From: a virus
Reading direction: 5' to 3' (one strand)
DNA length: 11,023 nt
Virus genome (UHGV): UHGV-0053823
Part shown: positions 735 through 11,023 of the stretch, piece after piece
How the letters are laid out: each line of letters begins with the position of its first letter
How positions within the stretch are numbered: position 1 is the first letter of the stretch
Position numbers and translations under genes: made by a program
Notes under the pieces: model-generated
Databases searched by the model: none
What the model was told of the DNA's origin: nothing
The model's input: only the letters and a program-made list of their open reading frames with translations

Positions 735-1784
735 TTACCCGAGCACGCCGGTTGCAAAGGCGTGATCAAGAAAACGAAAAATTAAATCAACCTGGGAACC
801 ATGCTTTTCTTCGAACGCCAGCGGATCCGCATGAAGTTCGTTGTGATGTTCCCGGCACAACGGTAGCGTGAAAATATCGTGGGCCTTTGTTCCCATCCCT
901 CCCTGACCGTGACCAATCAGGTGATGGGGATCGTCGGCTGGCTGACCACAACACGCACACGGCTGTGTCTTCACCCAGCGCGTATATTTCTCATTTACCC
1001 AACGGCGACGTTTAGGTCGCCTCATGAAAGATTCCGGAGACTCTGGATCAACGGTGATGCTTACCACCGTCTTTTCCTGTGATGGGTTTTGTTGCTGGTG
1101 GGCGTGAGGCAACGGTGCAAGATTTTTTGTGCGCTGTTTCAATATGCTGGTGGCGGTCTGCTCTCCCGGTACGATGTCGCTTTCGCGGTACAAGGAGCAG
1201 ATTTTTTCCGCACGTAACCCCAGAGAACGACGTAATACTGCCTCCGGAAGCGCGTCCGCCACCTGATTGCGGACCGCCCACCAGGATAATTCAGCCAGAG
1301 ATAATTCACGCTCCTGCGTACCGCTTATTGCGTGACCGATGACGTCAATCATCCATGCTGACAGGTTTTGATGAGCAAGTTGCTCAAGTGATTCGGATGT
1401 CTGGTCACGCAGCTGGTTGTCGCAGTGCCAGCACAACACCATTGCGCCGGTACCATAACGGTGAATAACGGTTTCGCTGTGATGATAATCGCCGTGTGGC
1501 CACTGGCAGGATTTAATATGGCGCAACAGCCAGTCAGACAATGCACCAGCACCACCAGCAGCACGAATTACCCGTGCGTTACTGAAAAACGGCAGCAATG
1601 TTTTGTCTTCCACCAGCGGCTGGCGAACGGCAGGGACGACTCCGGATGGCAGGCCGCACATGCTTTTCGGTTCCGGCTCCACCAGCACTCGAGGATTGTG
1701 AAATACCTGCATGGATTCACGACCTGGCTTAAGGACCACCAGCCCGAGTTCCGGTACCAGAACAGGTCGAAGTAATACCCGCAC
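735..1784 (-). CDS. DUF968 family phage protein (YdfU-like) with C-terminal Cys/His HNH-like motif
   Basis: 349-aa ORF ending 13 nt before rusA. C-terminal region CACCGQPADDPHHLIGHGQGGMGTKAHDIFTLPLCREHHNELH resembles the DUF968/YdfU family found beside Q in Qin-type prophages. The start is a non-ATG codon (GTG at 1784), so the true start is uncertain. Confidence 0.6.
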   Translation of the reverse strand: MRVLLRPVLVPELGLVVLKPGRESMQVFHNPRVLVEPEPKSMCGLPSGVVPAVRQPLVEDKTLLPFFSNARVIRAAGGAGALSDWLLRHIKSCQWPHGDYHHSETVIHRYGTGAMVLCWHCDNQLRDQTSESLEQLAHQNLSAWMIDVIGHAISGTQERELSLAELSWWAVRNQVADALPEAVLRRSLGLRAEKICSLYRESDIVPGEQTATSILKQRTKNLAPLPHAHQQQNPSQEKTVVSITVDPESPESFMRRPKRRRWVNEKYTRWVKTQPCACCGQPADDPHHLIGHGQGGMGTKAHDIFTLPLCREHHNELHADPLAFEEKHGSQVDLIFRFLDHAFATGVLG

Positions 1785-3624: not shown

Positions 3625-3957
3625 TCACTCTCCTTTGATGCGAATGCCAGCGACGCGTAGTGCGTGTTCTAAGTCAATCAGGCAAAGCCAACTGCCATTT
3701 TCTTTAGGTATCATGACATGCCGCTTATCAGCATTTATTGGGTGCCCATATCGAAGGTCGTAGCGAGTCGGTAATTGAACTTCCCTCGCTTCCAGTTCTG
3801 CAATGTGTTTGTTTTTAGCTTCTAGTTCATCCAGCAGCGCCAGCACAACCTGCGGTGTGACTTTCATACGAAATGCCAGCAATTTTTGTGGTGTGGCTAC
3901 TATTTTTATTGCTTCTGCCGCCTCACGCAGTGCCTGATAGTTAATTTCGGTTGTCAT
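3625..3957 (-). CDS. Ead/Ea22-like protein (short form)
   Basis: 110-aa ORF with ALREAAEA and VVLALLDELEAKNKHIAELEAR coiled-coil motifs typical of Ead/Ea22-like early proteins. Start overlaps the upstream stop (ATGA). Confidence 0.6.
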   Translation of the reverse strand: MTTEINYQALREAAEAIKIVATPQKLLAFRMKVTPQVVLALLDELEAKNKHIAELEAREVQLPTRYDLRYGHPINADKRHVMIPKENGSWLCLIDLEHALRVAGIRIKGE

Positions 3958-4832
3958 GCCACCACCTCTTCGAATTTCAACTCCAATTGATCACCCCAGA
4001 TTTCACATGATTCGGAACACGAACCAGTATCAAACCGCCTGGCTTGCACCATCGCCTGATACAAATTACTGTAGTCACTGTCGGCATACATTCTGGCAAT
4101 CCCGTCAAGCGTCAGGTGGCCACGGTACATAACGTCTTTTCCTGTTCTGCGATGACCATCCCTGACGTGTTTGCCTGTAACCAGTTCATTAAAAAACCGC
4201 ATCAGACCAGGTTCGTCTTTACATGCAAGCCCCAGCTTTTGCGTTGACTTTTTGATGCAGAAAACACAGTTCCCGAGGTGCTCTGGGATTTGCAAATCAA
4301 AAGGTTGTGCTCGCCACCACCGGATAACATCCGACTTATCAAAATGTGACAGTTCGGCAAGATACCGGACGCCCGGTTTCGGTTTCAGCCTACGGTGTTC
4401 GTCCGCACGAATACCCAGCCATGTGATGTAATTCCCTCGTCCGAAATGGTCATCGCAATATTTCGTGAAAGGGGTGAGTTTTAGCCTGTCAGTACAGAAC
4501 GCGCCGCCGATGTATGGCGTGCCGTACTTTTTAACCATATCCATAAACGGTTTAAGCACCGGCATTCGCGTCTGAATATCCTTTGGTTCCCATTCCGTAT
4601 AACTATTTGGCTGCCCAAGCTCTGGATTTATATCGACCTGCAACACGGTTAGTGGAATATCCCAGAACTTCACGACTTCCCGAATAAATCGGTATGTCAG
4701 CGGGTGTTCACATCCCGTATCCATGAATATGTAATGAACGTTTTCACCTGCCTTTCTGCGTTGCTCCATAAGGTGAACGAGATACGCCGATGTACGACCG
4801 CCTGAAAAACTCACAACATGATGAGCGCTCAT
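3954..4832 (-). CDS. PAPS reductase-like / PP-loop ATP pyrophosphatase family enzyme
   Basis: 292-aa ORF with N-terminal PP-loop motif VVSFSGGRTSAYL and C-terminal cysteine pairs (NCVFC, GSCSESC) suggesting a metal or Fe-S site. ATG start at 4832. Confidence 0.7.
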   Translation of the reverse strand: MSAHHVVSFSGGRTSAYLVHLMEQRRKAGENVHYIFMDTGCEHPLTYRFIREVVKFWDIPLTVLQVDINPELGQPNSYTEWEPKDIQTRMPVLKPFMDMVKKYGTPYIGGAFCTDRLKLTPFTKYCDDHFGRGNYITWLGIRADEHRRLKPKPGVRYLAELSHFDKSDVIRWWRAQPFDLQIPEHLGNCVFCIKKSTQKLGLACKDEPGLMRFFNELVTGKHVRDGHRRTGKDVMYRGHLTLDGIARMYADSDYSNLYQAMVQARRFDTGSCSESCEIWGDQLELKFEEVVA

Positions 4833-7662: not shown

Positions 7663-8346
7663 TTAACCCCCCCATTGTTCTCCAAATACAAAACCAATTT
7701 CAGCCAGGGCTTCGTCCATTTTTTCGATGAACTCCGGCACCATCTCATCAAAACTCGCCATGTACTTTTCATCCCGTTCGACCACGACATAATGCAGGCC
7801 TTCTCGCTTCATGCGCGGGTCGTAGTTGGCAAAGTACCAGGCGTCCTTGTCTGTAACCCACATGCTGAATTGCACCTGAGCCATATAAGCGGGTTTGATA
7901 GCATCAAAGCCGCCAAGTCTGAACTTCATGAAGTCGCGGGAAGTGAAGGGACATTTCAGTTCAAGACCGTTGCCGTCGCTGCATAAACCGTCGGGAGAGC
8001 AGGCGGTGCGCATGCTTTCGTCACGAAAAATTATGGGCGTTTCCGAGACGGTAATATCCGCGATAAATTCGAAGAGGGCACGGGCATCATCTTCATACTG
8101 CTTTCCCCATGCGAGCGACTTAGCGTTAACTTCCGGTGCCACGCCGGTACAAACTTCAGCCAGCAGGGTGTGGAAGTATGAGATTTTGGTATCAGGCCAT
8201 TTGCTGCCGGAACGTGGCTTTGCTATCACATTGTGAACTTCTGAAGCCGTGATAATGCCGAGCCTGAGTTTGTGCCACCCATCATCGTCCTGGCTGAGTG
8301 TGGTAATATCCACGCCAGTTCGCTGGAGAATAATTTCTGGCGTCAT
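7663..8346 (-). CDS. exo: Lambda-type 5'-3' exonuclease (Red-alpha / Exo)
   Basis: 227-aa ORF that matches lambda Exo, as I recall it, along nearly its whole length ([11 protein letters not shown]..., [56 protein letters not shown]-terminus [10 protein letters not shown]). Start overlaps the annealase stop (ATGA). Confidence 0.9.
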
Positions 8347-9293
8347 GATACGGCCTCGCTGTTATTTTCCGTGGTGGCGTGAACTTTCGCTTCCGCCGTG
8401 GCCTTGTTTCTGGCAGCTTTCTTTTTGACGAAAGCCAGCGCTTTGACAGCTTCTTCCTGATTGAGATTTTCATGTGATGCAATCGTGCGACCGAATATTT
8501 GGGAACACAGGGGGATCAGGTCATCCCATGTTTTGTTAATTTCGCTCATAGCCTGAGTGATCTCATTAATAATCTCATCTGATGCGGGAGTGACGTCACG
8601 CTCAGGGGGGTGATCAGCATTCAGGATGATACCTTCCCCGGCCTGAGTGTTCAGGTAGTCGATAGCCGTATCCAGGCGATCACGACGGGGCCAGTATTTG
8701 CTGGCGCGTTTAACAATGACTTTGCGGGCCATTTCATCGGGGAAACTATCCCACGGACTACTTCCCCCGTTCTGTCCGGCCTTGCTGCACGCTCTGATGG
8801 CTTCGATTGCCTCGTTGCTCATCTCTTCGGTCAGATAGTCGCCTTCGGATGTTTTGACGACACAATAACCGCCAATACGTGCGCCCCTGTCGACAAACGG
8901 GTTGTATTTGTGAGTGGGGGCGCAGTCAATGCCGTTGGACTCGTAAATGTCCTTCTCGTAAACAAGTTTGCATTGCCCCCACTGAATGGCTCCTGTGACC
9001 TGCGCCAGATGCAGAAGTCCCATATAACTGATATCCAGGCATACAGCACCTTTTCGCGGGACCAGATACGCCAGCTTACTGGCGGGGTTCAGGGTTATAC
9101 CAATGGCTGCAACATTGATGATAGCGTTCTGTGCGCTGGCTAGATTTCCCTGTGCTGTTTTAGCCAGAAAGTCATTTTTCTGGAATTGCTGAATTGCAAA
9201 CTGACTTTCCTTCGCCCATGTCAGCGTTGGTTCAGTCAATGCCTCGCAGAAAAATCGCTCCTGCTGTTTAACAAATTCAACGATATCGAACAT
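8343..9293 (-). CDS. ssDNA annealing protein: RecT-family core with a lambda Bet-like C-terminal domain
   Basis: Core motifs match RecT ([41 protein letters not shown] versus RecT SKAGNNGPWVTHWEEMAKKTAIRRLFKYLP). The C-terminal 70 aa ([16 protein letters not shown]...[20 protein letters not shown]...[15 protein letters not shown]) match the lambda Bet C-terminus as I recall it. Start placed at internal ATG 9293 (AGGA upstream, 16 nt after the Gam-like stop); the track's ATG at 9362 would overlap the upstream gene by 53 nt. Confidence 0.85.
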
Positions 9294-9309
9294 TTTTTGG
9301 TCCTGAAAA

Positions 9310-9591
9310 TCAGAAAGGACAGGGGGAGAATTTCCTCTCCCATTCTTCTTCCGCCCGTGCATAGGCGATCGCTGAGATATAATCGTTGTACGCCTCTTCA
9401 GCTTTATCGCCAGTAAGTGCCAGCTGGGCTTCTTTGGGTAAAAAAAGGCTGCTCATAAGCAATGGTTTATCGGGGAACATGCTGATAAGCTCCAGCGCCC
9501 GATCATCAATCCATTTATCCTTTTCATCCTGAATTTGCTGATTAACCCAGCGACGCTCCTCTATGCGGTCGCAGGTTAGGTATGCGTTCAT
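9310..9591 (-). CDS. Putative Gam-like RecBCD inhibitor
   Basis: 93-aa ORF with AGGAG SD 7 nt upstream. N-terminus MNAYLTCDRIEERRW resembles the start of the short form of lambda Gam (MNAYYIQDRLEAQSW), and it sits directly upstream of the annealase and exo as gam does in lambda. Similarity beyond the N-terminus is weak. Confidence 0.45.
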   Translation of the reverse strand: MNAYLTCDRIEERRWVNQQIQDEKDKWIDDRALELISMFPDKPLLMSSLFLPKEAQLALTGDKAEEAYNDYISAIAYARAEEEWERKFSPCPF

Positions 9592-9904: not shown

Positions 9905-10117
9905 TCAGGCTGGCGAGATTAACGGTTGGCCTTTGTGGTTCAGGCAAATTTCGATTGTCTCTGAGATAATGCGAATTTTTTCAATCAGTGAATGTGCGTA
10001 AAGCGCATTATTAACGTTTGCTGACGCCATGTAATAACGCCCGTTGTAAAGAATTGCTGTGCCGGGTTTAACTTCCTCGCGAGAAACTAATGCGGTTCCG
10101 TAGTGAGGTTTGAGCAT
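9905..10117 (-). CDS. Hypothetical 70-aa protein
   Basis: ATG start with GGAGGA SD 6 nt upstream; first gene after the Rha gene on the same strand. No family recognised. Confidence 0.45.
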   Translation of the reverse strand: MLKPHYGTALVSREEVKPGTAILYNGRYYMASANVNNALYAHSLIEKIRIISETIEICLNHKGQPLISPA

Positions 10118-10156
10118 GACAAATCCTCCGGTTAATTAATCCAGATATTTAATTTA

Positions 10157-10179
10157 ATCCCCGATACGTGATCGGGGAT
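10157..10179. repeat. Perfect 9-bp inverted repeat (ATCCCCGAT-acgtg-ATCGGGGAT) flanked by TTAATTAA octamers
   Basis: Seen directly in the sequence between the Rha stop (10188) and the next gene start (10117). TTAATTAA occurs at about 10132-10139 and 10184-10191. Could be an RNA hairpin or a dyad-symmetric protein-binding site. Confidence 0.5.
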
Positions 10180-10187
10180 GGGCTTAA

Positions 10188-10832
10188 TTAAAGATTAACG
10201 TTGAAACCAAAGCGGGAAGATTTTTCCGATGTACGGGAAATATCCAGCAATTTACGGCGCATTTCTTCCGTCAGATGTTTGAAAGCGTTAAATTCGGCAA
10301 CAGCGGCGTCAACGTTATAGCCCTTGCTGTGTAGTTCGTTGAGGATGCGCATAGTTGGGCTTGGCATATCGAAGAGCACGGAAGCATCAAGGCTGATAAC
10401 TTTGCGATCAACATAATTCATCGTGGCGTAGGGGTGATGCTCAGAAAACCACGATAAAGGGAAATTGATGTTCATCGCAGGAGAAGACAGGGCCAGTTGT
10501 TTCTGTTCCCATAGTTGTTTTTCCATGCGATCGAATTCAGCGATGTAGGCTTCTTTGAAAGCTGCGGCTTTTTTACCAGTGAATCCCATTACCAGGAAGA
10601 CGAAGCCGTTTTTGGTGATTTGATAGGCGTTATAGGTATTACCCCGGTGTTCGAATTTAACCCGCGAAAAGTTGCTGGTTAAGAATTGTTCAGAGCATTC
10701 AAGGGATTCTATTTTCTGAACAACATGGTGATGCTGCTTCTCAAAGAACTCTGCGATGTCAATTGACGTAGTGATGGCATTGCCGTTTTCAATAGTTACG
10801 GATGGGCGAGAAAGGGGAGATATAGTAGCCAT
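10188..10832 (-). CDS. Phage regulatory protein, Rha family
   Basis: 214-aa ORF from internal ATG 10832 preceded by a consensus SD (AAGGAGG, 9-nt spacing). N-terminal domain ITTSIDIAEFFEKQHHHVVQKIESLE ... YQITKNGFVFLVMGFTGKKAAAFKEAYIAEFDRMEKQL matches the Rha domain. Confidence 0.75.
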   Translation of the reverse strand: MATISPLSRPSVTIENGNAITTSIDIAEFFEKQHHHVVQKIESLECSEQFLTSNFSRVKFEHRGNTYNAYQITKNGFVFLVMGFTGKKAAAFKEAYIAEFDRMEKQLWEQKQLALSSPAMNINFPLSWFSEHHPYATMNYVDRKVISLDASVLFDMPSPTMRILNELHSKGYNVDAAVAEFNAFKHLTEEMRRKLLDISRTSEKSSRFGFNVNL

Positions 10833-10997
10833 GGTGGCAGCCTCCTTGATTGGTGATTGATAACCACCGCCGGAGGTCCTAAACTCGCTGGCGGTGGACT
10901 GTACAGGGTTAGGACTACTGGCAATCAAGGGAACCAGCCCGACCGAAGTCGGCCCCATACAGCCCACCATTGATAAGATGTGCGTGCATGTCGATAC

Positions 10998-11023
10998 AAA
11001 AAAAAGCCCGCGGCACGGCAGGG
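10998..11023 (-). terminator. Possible intrinsic terminator for minus-strand transcription, truncated by window edge
   Basis: Plus strand reads A8 followed by GC-rich GCCCGCGGCACGGCAGGG; on the minus strand this is a GC-rich segment followed by U8. The partner arm of the stem would lie beyond position 11023. Confidence 0.25.

Follow-up and report, generated by a model that had tools for sequence, protein, structure and literature searches.

A conserved RNA stem-loop between ant and kil in the early-left operon of a Stx-type Escherichia coli prophage, possibly a terminator-derived read-through hairpin

The dyad located between the antirepressor gene ant and the cell-division inhibitor gene kil in UHGV virus genome UHGV-0053823 proved to be a genuine RNA stem-loop, conserved in relatives and carried by the minus-strand transcript, where it closed an antirepressor cassette. 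The region belonged to the early-left operon of a Stx-type (Eru1/Oslovirus-like) E. coli prophage, and the window analyzed was the whole 11,023-nt stretch. The hairpin was best read as a terminator-derived, read-through RNA element, perhaps a pause site or a decay barrier (probability about 0.5), and transcription very likely continued past it into kil and the recombination genes. As such, it was an ordinary kind of element. The features of the region were as follows, with type K denoting the window-type hairpin and type X the U-tailed hairpin found after a second ant gene (see below):

11007..11022, minus strand: hairpin at the window edge followed by U8, terminator-like by scan
10887..10974, minus strand: C4 antisense RNA (Rfam RF01695, 78.9 bits versus a gathering score of 45)
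10188..10832, minus strand: antirepressor gene (ant), 214 aa, with N-terminal Phage_pRha domain (PF09669, E 2.7e-26)
10184..10191, no strand assigned: TTAATTAA copy 1, which includes the TAA that stops ant (10190..10188, minus strand) plus an out-of-frame TAA
10157..10179, minus strand: RNA stem-loop of type K, 5'-AUCCCCGAU CACGU AUCGGGGAU-3', with a 9-bp stem and a 5-nt loop
10130..10156, minus strand: AU-rich spacer including the second TTAATTAA (from the sequence)
10140..10148, minus strand: anchor AUAUCUGGA, common to the type K and type X hairpin contexts
10132..10139, no strand assigned: TTAATTAA copy 2, 2 nt upstream (RNA sense) of the kil SD and within a 30-nt block 100% conserved
10125..10129, minus strand: kil SD GGAGG (from the sequence)
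9905..10117, minus strand: kil, 70 aa, KilR-family cell-division inhibitor (homologues named cell division inhibitor; PF27398, KilR)
downstream of kil, minus strand: small ORF, gamL, recT, and YqaJ-type exonuclease gene (from gene order)

All genes in the region lay on the minus strand, a direction on which the initial annotation had been silent, although it had rightly placed the dyad between Rha and the next gene. In RNA sense, the order was ant stop codon, hairpin, AU-rich spacer, second TTAATTAA, SD GGAGG, and kil ATG (10117). The ant C-terminal domain was common to AntA- and ORF6N-type antirepressors, and the kil counterpart was annotated as Kil in PhiR12_3 and P13374. In four close relatives, C4 was preceded, at a distance of 25 nt, by an isrK-like RNA (RF01394), whose 3' end/terminator was the hairpin at the window edge. 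The C4 loop CCUUGAUUG (10930..10922) was, as read from the sequence, perfectly complementary to CAAUCAAGG (10852..10844), which overlapped the ant SD. Stx-converting prophages of the TL-2011c / P13374 / PA2-PA8 / ArgO145 type displayed 94-98% identity over 10060-10260, and the region was found in 147 of 5426 complete E. coli genomes, always chromosomal, always in the ant-kil context, and at a median of one place each.

The cassette resembled the immI region (c4, icd, and ant) of P1/P7 in its Rfam C4 match (78.9 bits) and in having a C4 loop complementary to the ribosome-binding site of the gene that follows, but it differed in three respects: (i) icd was absent; (ii) the regulated gene encoded a Rha/AntA/ORF6N-type antirepressor; and (iii) the cassette was embedded in the early-left operon of a CI/Cro-type prophage, with the isrK-like RNA before C4. 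To our knowledge, no P1 counterpart of the hairpin has been described.

The dyad ATCCCCGAT-ACGTG-ATCGGGGAT (10157-10179) had perfect arms of 9 nt each, as the initial annotation had described, around a 5-nt non-palindromic spacer; the search for further copies that had been proposed there was run and gave a single copy in the 11-kb window, even with up to three mismatches allowed. A perfect 9-bp inverted repeat with a short loop was not rare by itself: at least one (3-8-nt loop) was present in 22% of 200 dinucleotide shuffles of the 11-kb window (mean 0.315). About 0.002 such repeats were expected by chance in the 70-nt ant-kil gap, and thus it was the place of the hairpin (in this 70-nt gap, 8 nt past a stop codon) together with its conservation in relatives, and not the repeat alone, that marked it as non-random.

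TTAATTAA occurred exactly twice in the window (10132-10139 and 10184-10191), a count that was reached in 9 of 200 shuffles, and its two copies were separated from the dyad by 17 bp and 4 bp, respectively; the former gap had been given correctly before, while the latter had been put at about 5 bp. The ant stop codon sat within the right-hand copy (copy 1), which was invariant in all type K relatives and absent from the type X context. Copy 2 belonged to the bin 10149-10120 (the kil initiation region, with TTAATTAA copy 2 and the SD), which displayed 100% identity in four of four comparisons, even where kil had diverged. Most simply, copy 1 was an AT-rich linker bearing stop codons and copy 2 was part of a strictly conserved kil translation-initiation region, and the two did not seem to work together as a repeat pair. 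Mutual pairing of the copies, also considered, would comprise eight A-U pairs only and was chosen in neither the MFE nor the centroid fold.

On the coding strand, the hairpin began 8 nt past the ant stop codon, and its end stood 27 nt ahead of the kil SD; it folded at -13.7 kcal/mol (z -3.3), and the MFE and centroid structures of the intergenic RNA both contained it, so that the strong hairpin followed by an A/U-rich tract that had been foreseen at the RNA level was borne out on the transcribed minus strand. With 5 G-C pairs, its 9-bp stem was as GC rich as that expected of an intrinsic terminator. Immediately 3' of the stem stood UAAAUUAA, or AUUAAAUU with the outer A-U pairs opened, giving 3-4 U in 8 nt and no run; the terminator scan asked for at least 5 U in the 8 nt immediately 3' of the stem, and by this U-rich criterion it called the hairpin a terminator neither in the window nor in PA8. 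In an extended fold (MFE -29.4 kcal/mol, z -2.87), the last ant codons paired with the second TTAATTAA region and thereby enclosed the hairpin; the yardstick for an RNase III site was about two helical turns of nearly unbroken duplex RNA, and this fold reached about 26 pairs, with 4-nt internal loops. Its outer helices were short and all-AU, with outer segments invariant in relatives. No Rfam 15 family matched within 10120-10200 even with E values up to 1 accepted; C4 at 10887-10974 was the single real match in the window. Two further roles were considered and set aside: (i) masking of the kil SD by the UCCCC arm, a pairing that on reading of the sequence was much weaker than the hairpin, and (ii) a plus-strand antisense small RNA ending at the hairpin, for which the scan and the sequence offered no convincing plus-strand promoter or U-tail.

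The sequence comparison was applied to the intergenic regions gathered from 40-odd IMG/VR, GenBank, and RefSeq loci, which fell into nine sequence variants (eight at first and then that of E. coli 95NR1). The 7-bp core CCCCGAY/RUCGGGG was kept in relatives, and its CCCCGA/UCGGGG part was identical in eight of the nine variants; 95NR1 had a C.U mismatch inside the core stem, and therefore the constraint on the stem was not absolute. The seventh pair was U-A (window), C.A (the commonest form), or C-G, which plausibly would make up a compensatory series. The loop of window-type hairpins was CACGU, CACAU, UAUAU, or the 4-nt CUGC (AUCCC in the U-tailed copy), the 5' flank was GCCC, CCCC, or AUCU, and the 3' flank was UUAAAUUAAAU, UUAAAUAAAAU, or (G/A)AAAAAUUAAAU; every folded variant had an energy of -12.4 to -15.3 kcal/mol. 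Three relatives had AAAAA directly after the stem, and one outer helix of the extended fold was broken in the UAAAUAAAAU variants. The initial annotation had treated absence of the element from relatives as speaking against its reading; what was found was a stem kept in relatives, with differing loop and flanks.

In sliding comparisons, the 30-nt bin with the hairpin was the least conserved local bin (70-87% identity), and the variable columns between the TTAATTAA copies missed all 13 core stem columns in the first eight variants. Covariation was seen at one pair only and was not significant, 113 of 500 shuffles reaching the observed score. Overall, the pattern would fit a constraint on pairing and not on sequence, which is suggestive; template-switch correction of DNA quasi-palindromes could be an alternative cause of arm complementarity, with no selection on the RNA.

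The search for Kil homologues gave only eight proteins, among which P0007 (Pantoea) was left out of the DNA comparison; in L014, the most distant Kil homologue with DNA (60% identity), kil directly followed a repressor gene, with neither ant nor the hairpin, and this locus therefore gave no covariation data. Among species-representative genomes, the strict flank pattern had no matches, and the stem-plus-AUAUCUGG pattern had 31 matches over unrelated phyla, none of them enterobacterial, a number of the same order as the chance estimate of about 16; neither pattern led to relatives at a greater distance. A dispersed repeat (REP/BIME- or MITE-like) was rejected, the element being present at about one place per E. 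coli genome and always in the ant-kil context.

A homologous hairpin was found after a paralogous ant gene. The tblastn search with the antirepressor C-terminal domain identified a second ant gene further down the same operon, near methylase and xis-int genes, in AU5Stx1, PA8, P13374, and 19 other IMG/VR loci; phages with this second gene often carried the ant-kil copy too. After the second ant stood CCAUCCCCGAC AUCCC GUCGGGG UUUUCAUAUCUGGA (with the tail also written UUUUCAUAUCUGGAGAC), i.e., the stem of the window with a fifth loop form, the same flanking CCA and AUAUCUGGA, and a genuine U-run. The type K and type X hairpins shared the 7-bp core CCCCGAY/RUCGGGG, the location a few nucleotides past the antirepressor stop codon, the flanks (CCA before the stem and AUAUCUGGA after it), and the upstream order of C4-family RNA and then ant, and the common anchor AUAUCUGGA showed them to be homologous. 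They differed in the tail, which read UUUUCAU in the paralogous copy, AUUAAAUUAAAUAU in the window, and AAAAAUU in some relatives. The scan that did not call the window type called the U-tailed copy terminator-like.

The paralogous ant genes were also preceded by a C4-family RNA (sRNA-Xcc1, C4, or isrK in Rfam), and the unit was thus composed of small antisense RNA(s), then the antirepressor, and then the hairpin. A third type of paralogue had no hairpin; phage 2851 and Stx2c phages carried it in their nin regions, and in P13374, where two cassettes stood in tandem, it was the first. The comparison suggests that a hairpin-bearing segment of about 55-60 nt is an indel between paralogues. The terminator ancestry of the window-type hairpin was well founded, because the hairpin was homologous to the canonical terminator after the paralogous ant.

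The transcription of both hairpin contexts could be compared in strand-specific RNA-seq data from exponential, uninduced MG1655 lysogens of PA8 and phiO104, given as RPKM per phage gene (Berger et al., PMC6580645, Table S6); the hairpin types were checked directly in PA8 and, for phiO104, in the P13374 record of the same O104:H4 outbreak lineage. Across the window-type hairpin, the values went from 93/73/81 (ant) to 111/119/117 (kil) in PA8 and from 88/72/89 (ant) to 273/244/284 (kil) in phiO104, while across the U-tailed copy they went from 125/85/95 (ant2) to 19/30/31 (next gene) in PA8 and from 94/87/99 (ant2) to 30/33/39 (next gene) in phiO104 (PMC6580645). The kil/ant ratio was thus about 1.4 in PA8 and about 3.2 in phiO104, compared with about 0.26-0.36 (roughly a 3-fold drop) across the U-tailed copy, all these being ratios of per-gene values from relatives, in cultures that included spontaneously induced cells and along an operon with about 10-fold variation. 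Because of this drop at one copy and none at the other, the U-tailed copy acted like a partial terminator and the window type did not. The rise of RNA downstream of the window-type hairpin continued into the next ORF; the scan found a promoter-like site inside kil (10035..10007), from which this rise could come.

Published work consulted on the phage type included no Term-seq or end-mapping data, and that on Stx-phage architecture made no mention of the ant-kil intergenic site or of terminators there. Literature on the Phi24B antirepressor was set aside as concerning a different, P22-like ant, and work on the PA2/PA8 methyltransferase and on the Kapi1 transcriptome had no bearing on the site.

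The preferred reading, a terminator-derived hairpin that is read through, would work as follows. The cassette would comprise the isrK-like RNA, the C4 antisense RNA, ant, and the hairpin, directly upstream of kil, and at the ant-kil position a U-tract would have been replaced by AUUAAAUUAAAUAU, whether through loss here or through gain in the paralogous copy. Because of this replacement, RNA polymerase would mostly pass into kil, gamL, recT, and exo. The stem would then be kept for a generic job of a folded RNA that does not depend on the loop sequence, and the likeliest roles would be a transcriptional pause or a barrier against exonuclease or RNase E by which the ant and kil parts of the mRNA would obtain their ends and half-lives; several sequences in the AU-rich flanks would fit the RNase E cleavage consensus. 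Intercistronic stem-loops set the stability of segments in polycistronic operons, e.g., the REP hairpins in malEFG and the papBA intercistronic region. The window hairpin was like these in being a GC-rich hairpin in a short gap, followed by an AU-rich single strand, with a free loop and no terminator tail, but it was not REP/BIME and was not repeated around the genome, and the likeness drawn here is one of sequence and fold.

The main rival, although an unlikely one, was a non-functional relic, i.e., a decaying cassette terminator between two conserved genes, whose arms would be complementary through template-switch mutational bias and not through selection. Its proponents could point to the hairpin bin as the fastest-evolving local segment, to the C.A mismatch in the commonest variant and the internal C.U mismatch in 95NR1, to covariation confined to one pair and not significant versus shuffles, and to the lack of an RNA drop across the window-type hairpin. 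Yet variation avoided the 13 core stem columns in the first eight variants (95NR1 being the sole exception) while the loop took 4-5 forms, all folded variants stayed at -12 to -15 kcal/mol, and the stem was kept in the paralogous context too.

Weak termination came next and was somewhat less probable: a weak intrinsic terminator or attenuator would, in the lysogen, limit how much transcription from the constitutive isrK/C4 promoter region reaches toxic kil and would be overridden in lytic growth. The products of kil genes are toxic, and termination is a known means of silencing such genes in prophages, which speaks for this rival, as do the GC-rich stem on the transcribed strand, placed directly past a stop codon, the A/U-rich tail giving a weak hybrid, and the homology to a canonical terminator. 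It was countered by the tail of 3-4 U in 8 nt with no run (failing the scan that the paralogous copy passed), by AAAAA directly after the stem in three relatives, by kil RPKM equal to or exceeding ant RPKM in two related lysogens, and by the lack of an antiterminator (N-type) gene in the parts of relatives examined. The partial terminator that the initial annotation had proposed was therefore retained as ancestry, through the homology to a canonical terminator, but as a present function it was at best weak because no RNA was lost from ant to kil in the two related lysogens, in line with the missing U-run and the negative scan; the antitermination proposed with it was not needed to account for read-through, and the parts of relatives examined showed no N-type gene. 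More doubtful again was a defined RNA processing site, at which RNase III acting on the extended imperfect helix, or RNase E acting in the AU-rich flanks, would split the C4-controlled ant mRNA from the kil-gamL-recT mRNA and leave the hairpin to protect a 5' or 3' end. The enclosing extended fold (-29.4 kcal/mol, z -2.87), the AAAUU and GGAUU stretches in the single-stranded flanks, which presumably fit the RNase E consensus, and the rise rather than fall of RNA abundance downstream of the hairpin in relatives were in its favor; however, the outer helices were short, all-AU, and interrupted, with one broken in the UAAAUAAAAU variants, the outer segments were invariant and hence offered no covariation evidence, and the RNA rise went on into the next ORF and could be caused by the promoter-like site inside kil. 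We give similarly little credence to an uncoupling module, in which cleavage by the hairpin would free the kil-gamL-recT-exo message from the C4/isrK-controlled ant message and leave a stabilizing 5' stem-loop; if true, the phage would have turned a cassette terminator into a read-through processing signal, and the RNA rise after the hairpin in related lysogens would be explained.

A role as DNA was very improbable. The perfect 9-bp dyad had a size typical of dimeric regulators and might be an operator to which a regulator of the phage binds, be it the Rha-type protein or a different one, with auxiliary sites in the TTAATTAA copies, and Rha N-domains are thought to bind DNA (PMC8951638), which counted for it. 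However, the same hairpin followed genes with Rha, AntA, or ORF6N N-domains and its variants did not follow the domain type, the arm spacing shifted from 5 to 4 nt with a change at the half-site end, one copy was present in the window and only two post-ant contexts in 645 kb of related loci, the scan found no promoter-like site in the intergenic region, the CI/Cro operators of the phage type were unrelated in sequence, and the site lay inside an operon, 8 nt past a stop codon. The operator with Rha binding that had been suggested earlier was thus given up, because the hairpin did not track the Rha domain and did not resemble the CI/Cro operators. A nut-site boxB was likewise rejected: the hairpin shared with lambda-type boxB its small size, 5-nt loop, and location on the early-left transcript, but its loop was not conserved, with five loops of 4-5 nt among close relatives where boxB function depends on the loop, its stem was GC rich and 7-9 bp long, no boxA was nearby, and it stood after ant, more than 1 kb into the operon and far downstream of the promoter-proximal position of nutL. 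A boxB-like hairpin recognized by a protein was therefore unlikely because of the variable loop.

As to what the site means, the context was weightier than the hairpin, which was itself minor: a cassette of isrK-like RNA, C4, and antirepressor was located directly upstream of toxic kil in Stx2a phages of outbreak strains (O104:H4, O103:H25, and O157 PA8-type), and the extent to which cassette transcription leaks into kil and the genes for recombination may bear on the stability of the lysogen and on toxin release. The type K and type X hairpins made up a natural pair within the same phage genomes, with the same stem and with or without the U-tract, which could be used to test the share of the tail in termination in vivo.

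In the window, the Rha-type antirepressor gene was immediately preceded by a C4 antisense RNA, and a GC hairpin belonging to a further small RNA lay at the window edge:
11007-11022 (-): GC hairpin plus U8 at the right edge of the window, terminator of the isrK-like RNA matched in relatives
10887-10974 (-): full-length C4 antisense RNA (Rfam RF01695, 78.9 bits)
10188-10832 (-): Rha-type antirepressor gene
Related phage and prophage loci L144 2600-2675, L001 5403-5478, L105 5373-5448, and L107 1736-1811: isrK-like RNA (RF01394, 59-65 bits)

The C4 loop CCUUGAUUG (10922-10930) was perfectly complementary in the window sequence to CAAUCAAGG (10844-10852), which overlapped the Shine-Dalgarno sequence of the antirepressor gene; this pairing is predicted to constitute a translational block like that of P1 immI, but located here inside a CI/Cro-type prophage. 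The GC hairpin plus U8 at 11007-11022 (-) corresponds to the terminator of an isrK-like Hfq-binding RNA. The isrK-like RNA was located 25 nt upstream of C4, and thus two tandem small RNAs preceded the antirepressor gene. In the related Stx phage PA8, a near-consensus promoter TTGACT-17-TATATT, read by eye from the sequence, was found just upstream of the isrK-like RNA.

The antirepressor (10188-10832 in the window; related loci L002, L010, L011, L016, and L012) was modular in build: three mutually unrelated N-terminal domains (Phage_pRha, AntA, and ORF6N) occurred in different phages, each joined to a common C-terminal domain of ~95 aa, and only the C-terminal 77 codons were still an open frame at some loci. 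Most of these phages carried two or three C-domain paralogues. A segment of ~55-60 nt with the CCCCGA hairpin, which in the window is the stem-loop between the antirepressor stop codon and kil, followed some paralogues and was missing after others:
Related loci L041 2789-2843, L106 484-538, and L108 about 3950-4008: CCCCGA hairpin segment present
Related loci L042 about 2786-2810 and L105 4540-4565: CCCCGA hairpin segment absent

On either side of this segment the sequence was back in register (TAAG...AACAGATCG), and the difference looks like an indel comprising a small terminator module. In one strain, E. coli 95NR1 (NZ_CP021339.1, about 2937700), the 3' arm of the hairpin read AUCUGGGAU, which places a C.U mismatch midway along the core stem; this core was invariant elsewhere.

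The start of kil lay in a segment (10105-10128, -) with a predicted small hairpin, in which (i) the Shine-Dalgarno sequence GAGG paired with codons 4-5 (CCUC) and (ii) UUUG paired with CAAA, so that the AUG fell within the loop. This modeled hairpin could keep the toxic Kil poorly translated; its sequence was invariant in relatives, and hence no covariation signal was possible. One further element was located inside kil:
10007-10035 (-): promoter-like site ATTACA-17-AATAAT, coding strand

Given this site and an RPKM for the ORF after kil that was 2-6 times that of the antirepressor gene in related lysogens (PMC6580645, Table S6), there may be an internal transcription start or a more stable RNA segment. 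E. coli JNEC-KY176, the genome closest to the window (98.8% identity), contained the kil ORF in its DNA (L144 1506-1718) without RefSeq annotation.

A second intercistronic hairpin was found at the gamL-recT junction:
9310-9591 (-): gamL ORF
9324-9341 (-, transcribed strand): hairpin between gamL and recT, GGGAGAGGAAAUUCUCCC then CCUGUCCUUU
8343-9362 (-): RecT ORF as called mechanically, 339 aa from ATG 9362

The terminator scan called this hairpin terminator-like, and RPKM dropped ~2.5- to 3-fold from gamL to recT in related lysogens. The mechanical RecT ORF overlapped gamL by ~50 nt; RecT was annotated at 300-316 aa in relatives, although the annotation of P13374, a related Stx phage, also has the long, overlapping form. 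Because of these annotated lengths, RecT may in fact start at the ATG near 9294, in which case gamL and recT would be separated by a short gap containing the hairpin.

Elsewhere in the window, a weak match to the archaeal snoRNA family sR55 at 1335-1396 (+) scored 24 bits (E 0.02), below the gathering score of 35, and it was almost certainly a chance match.
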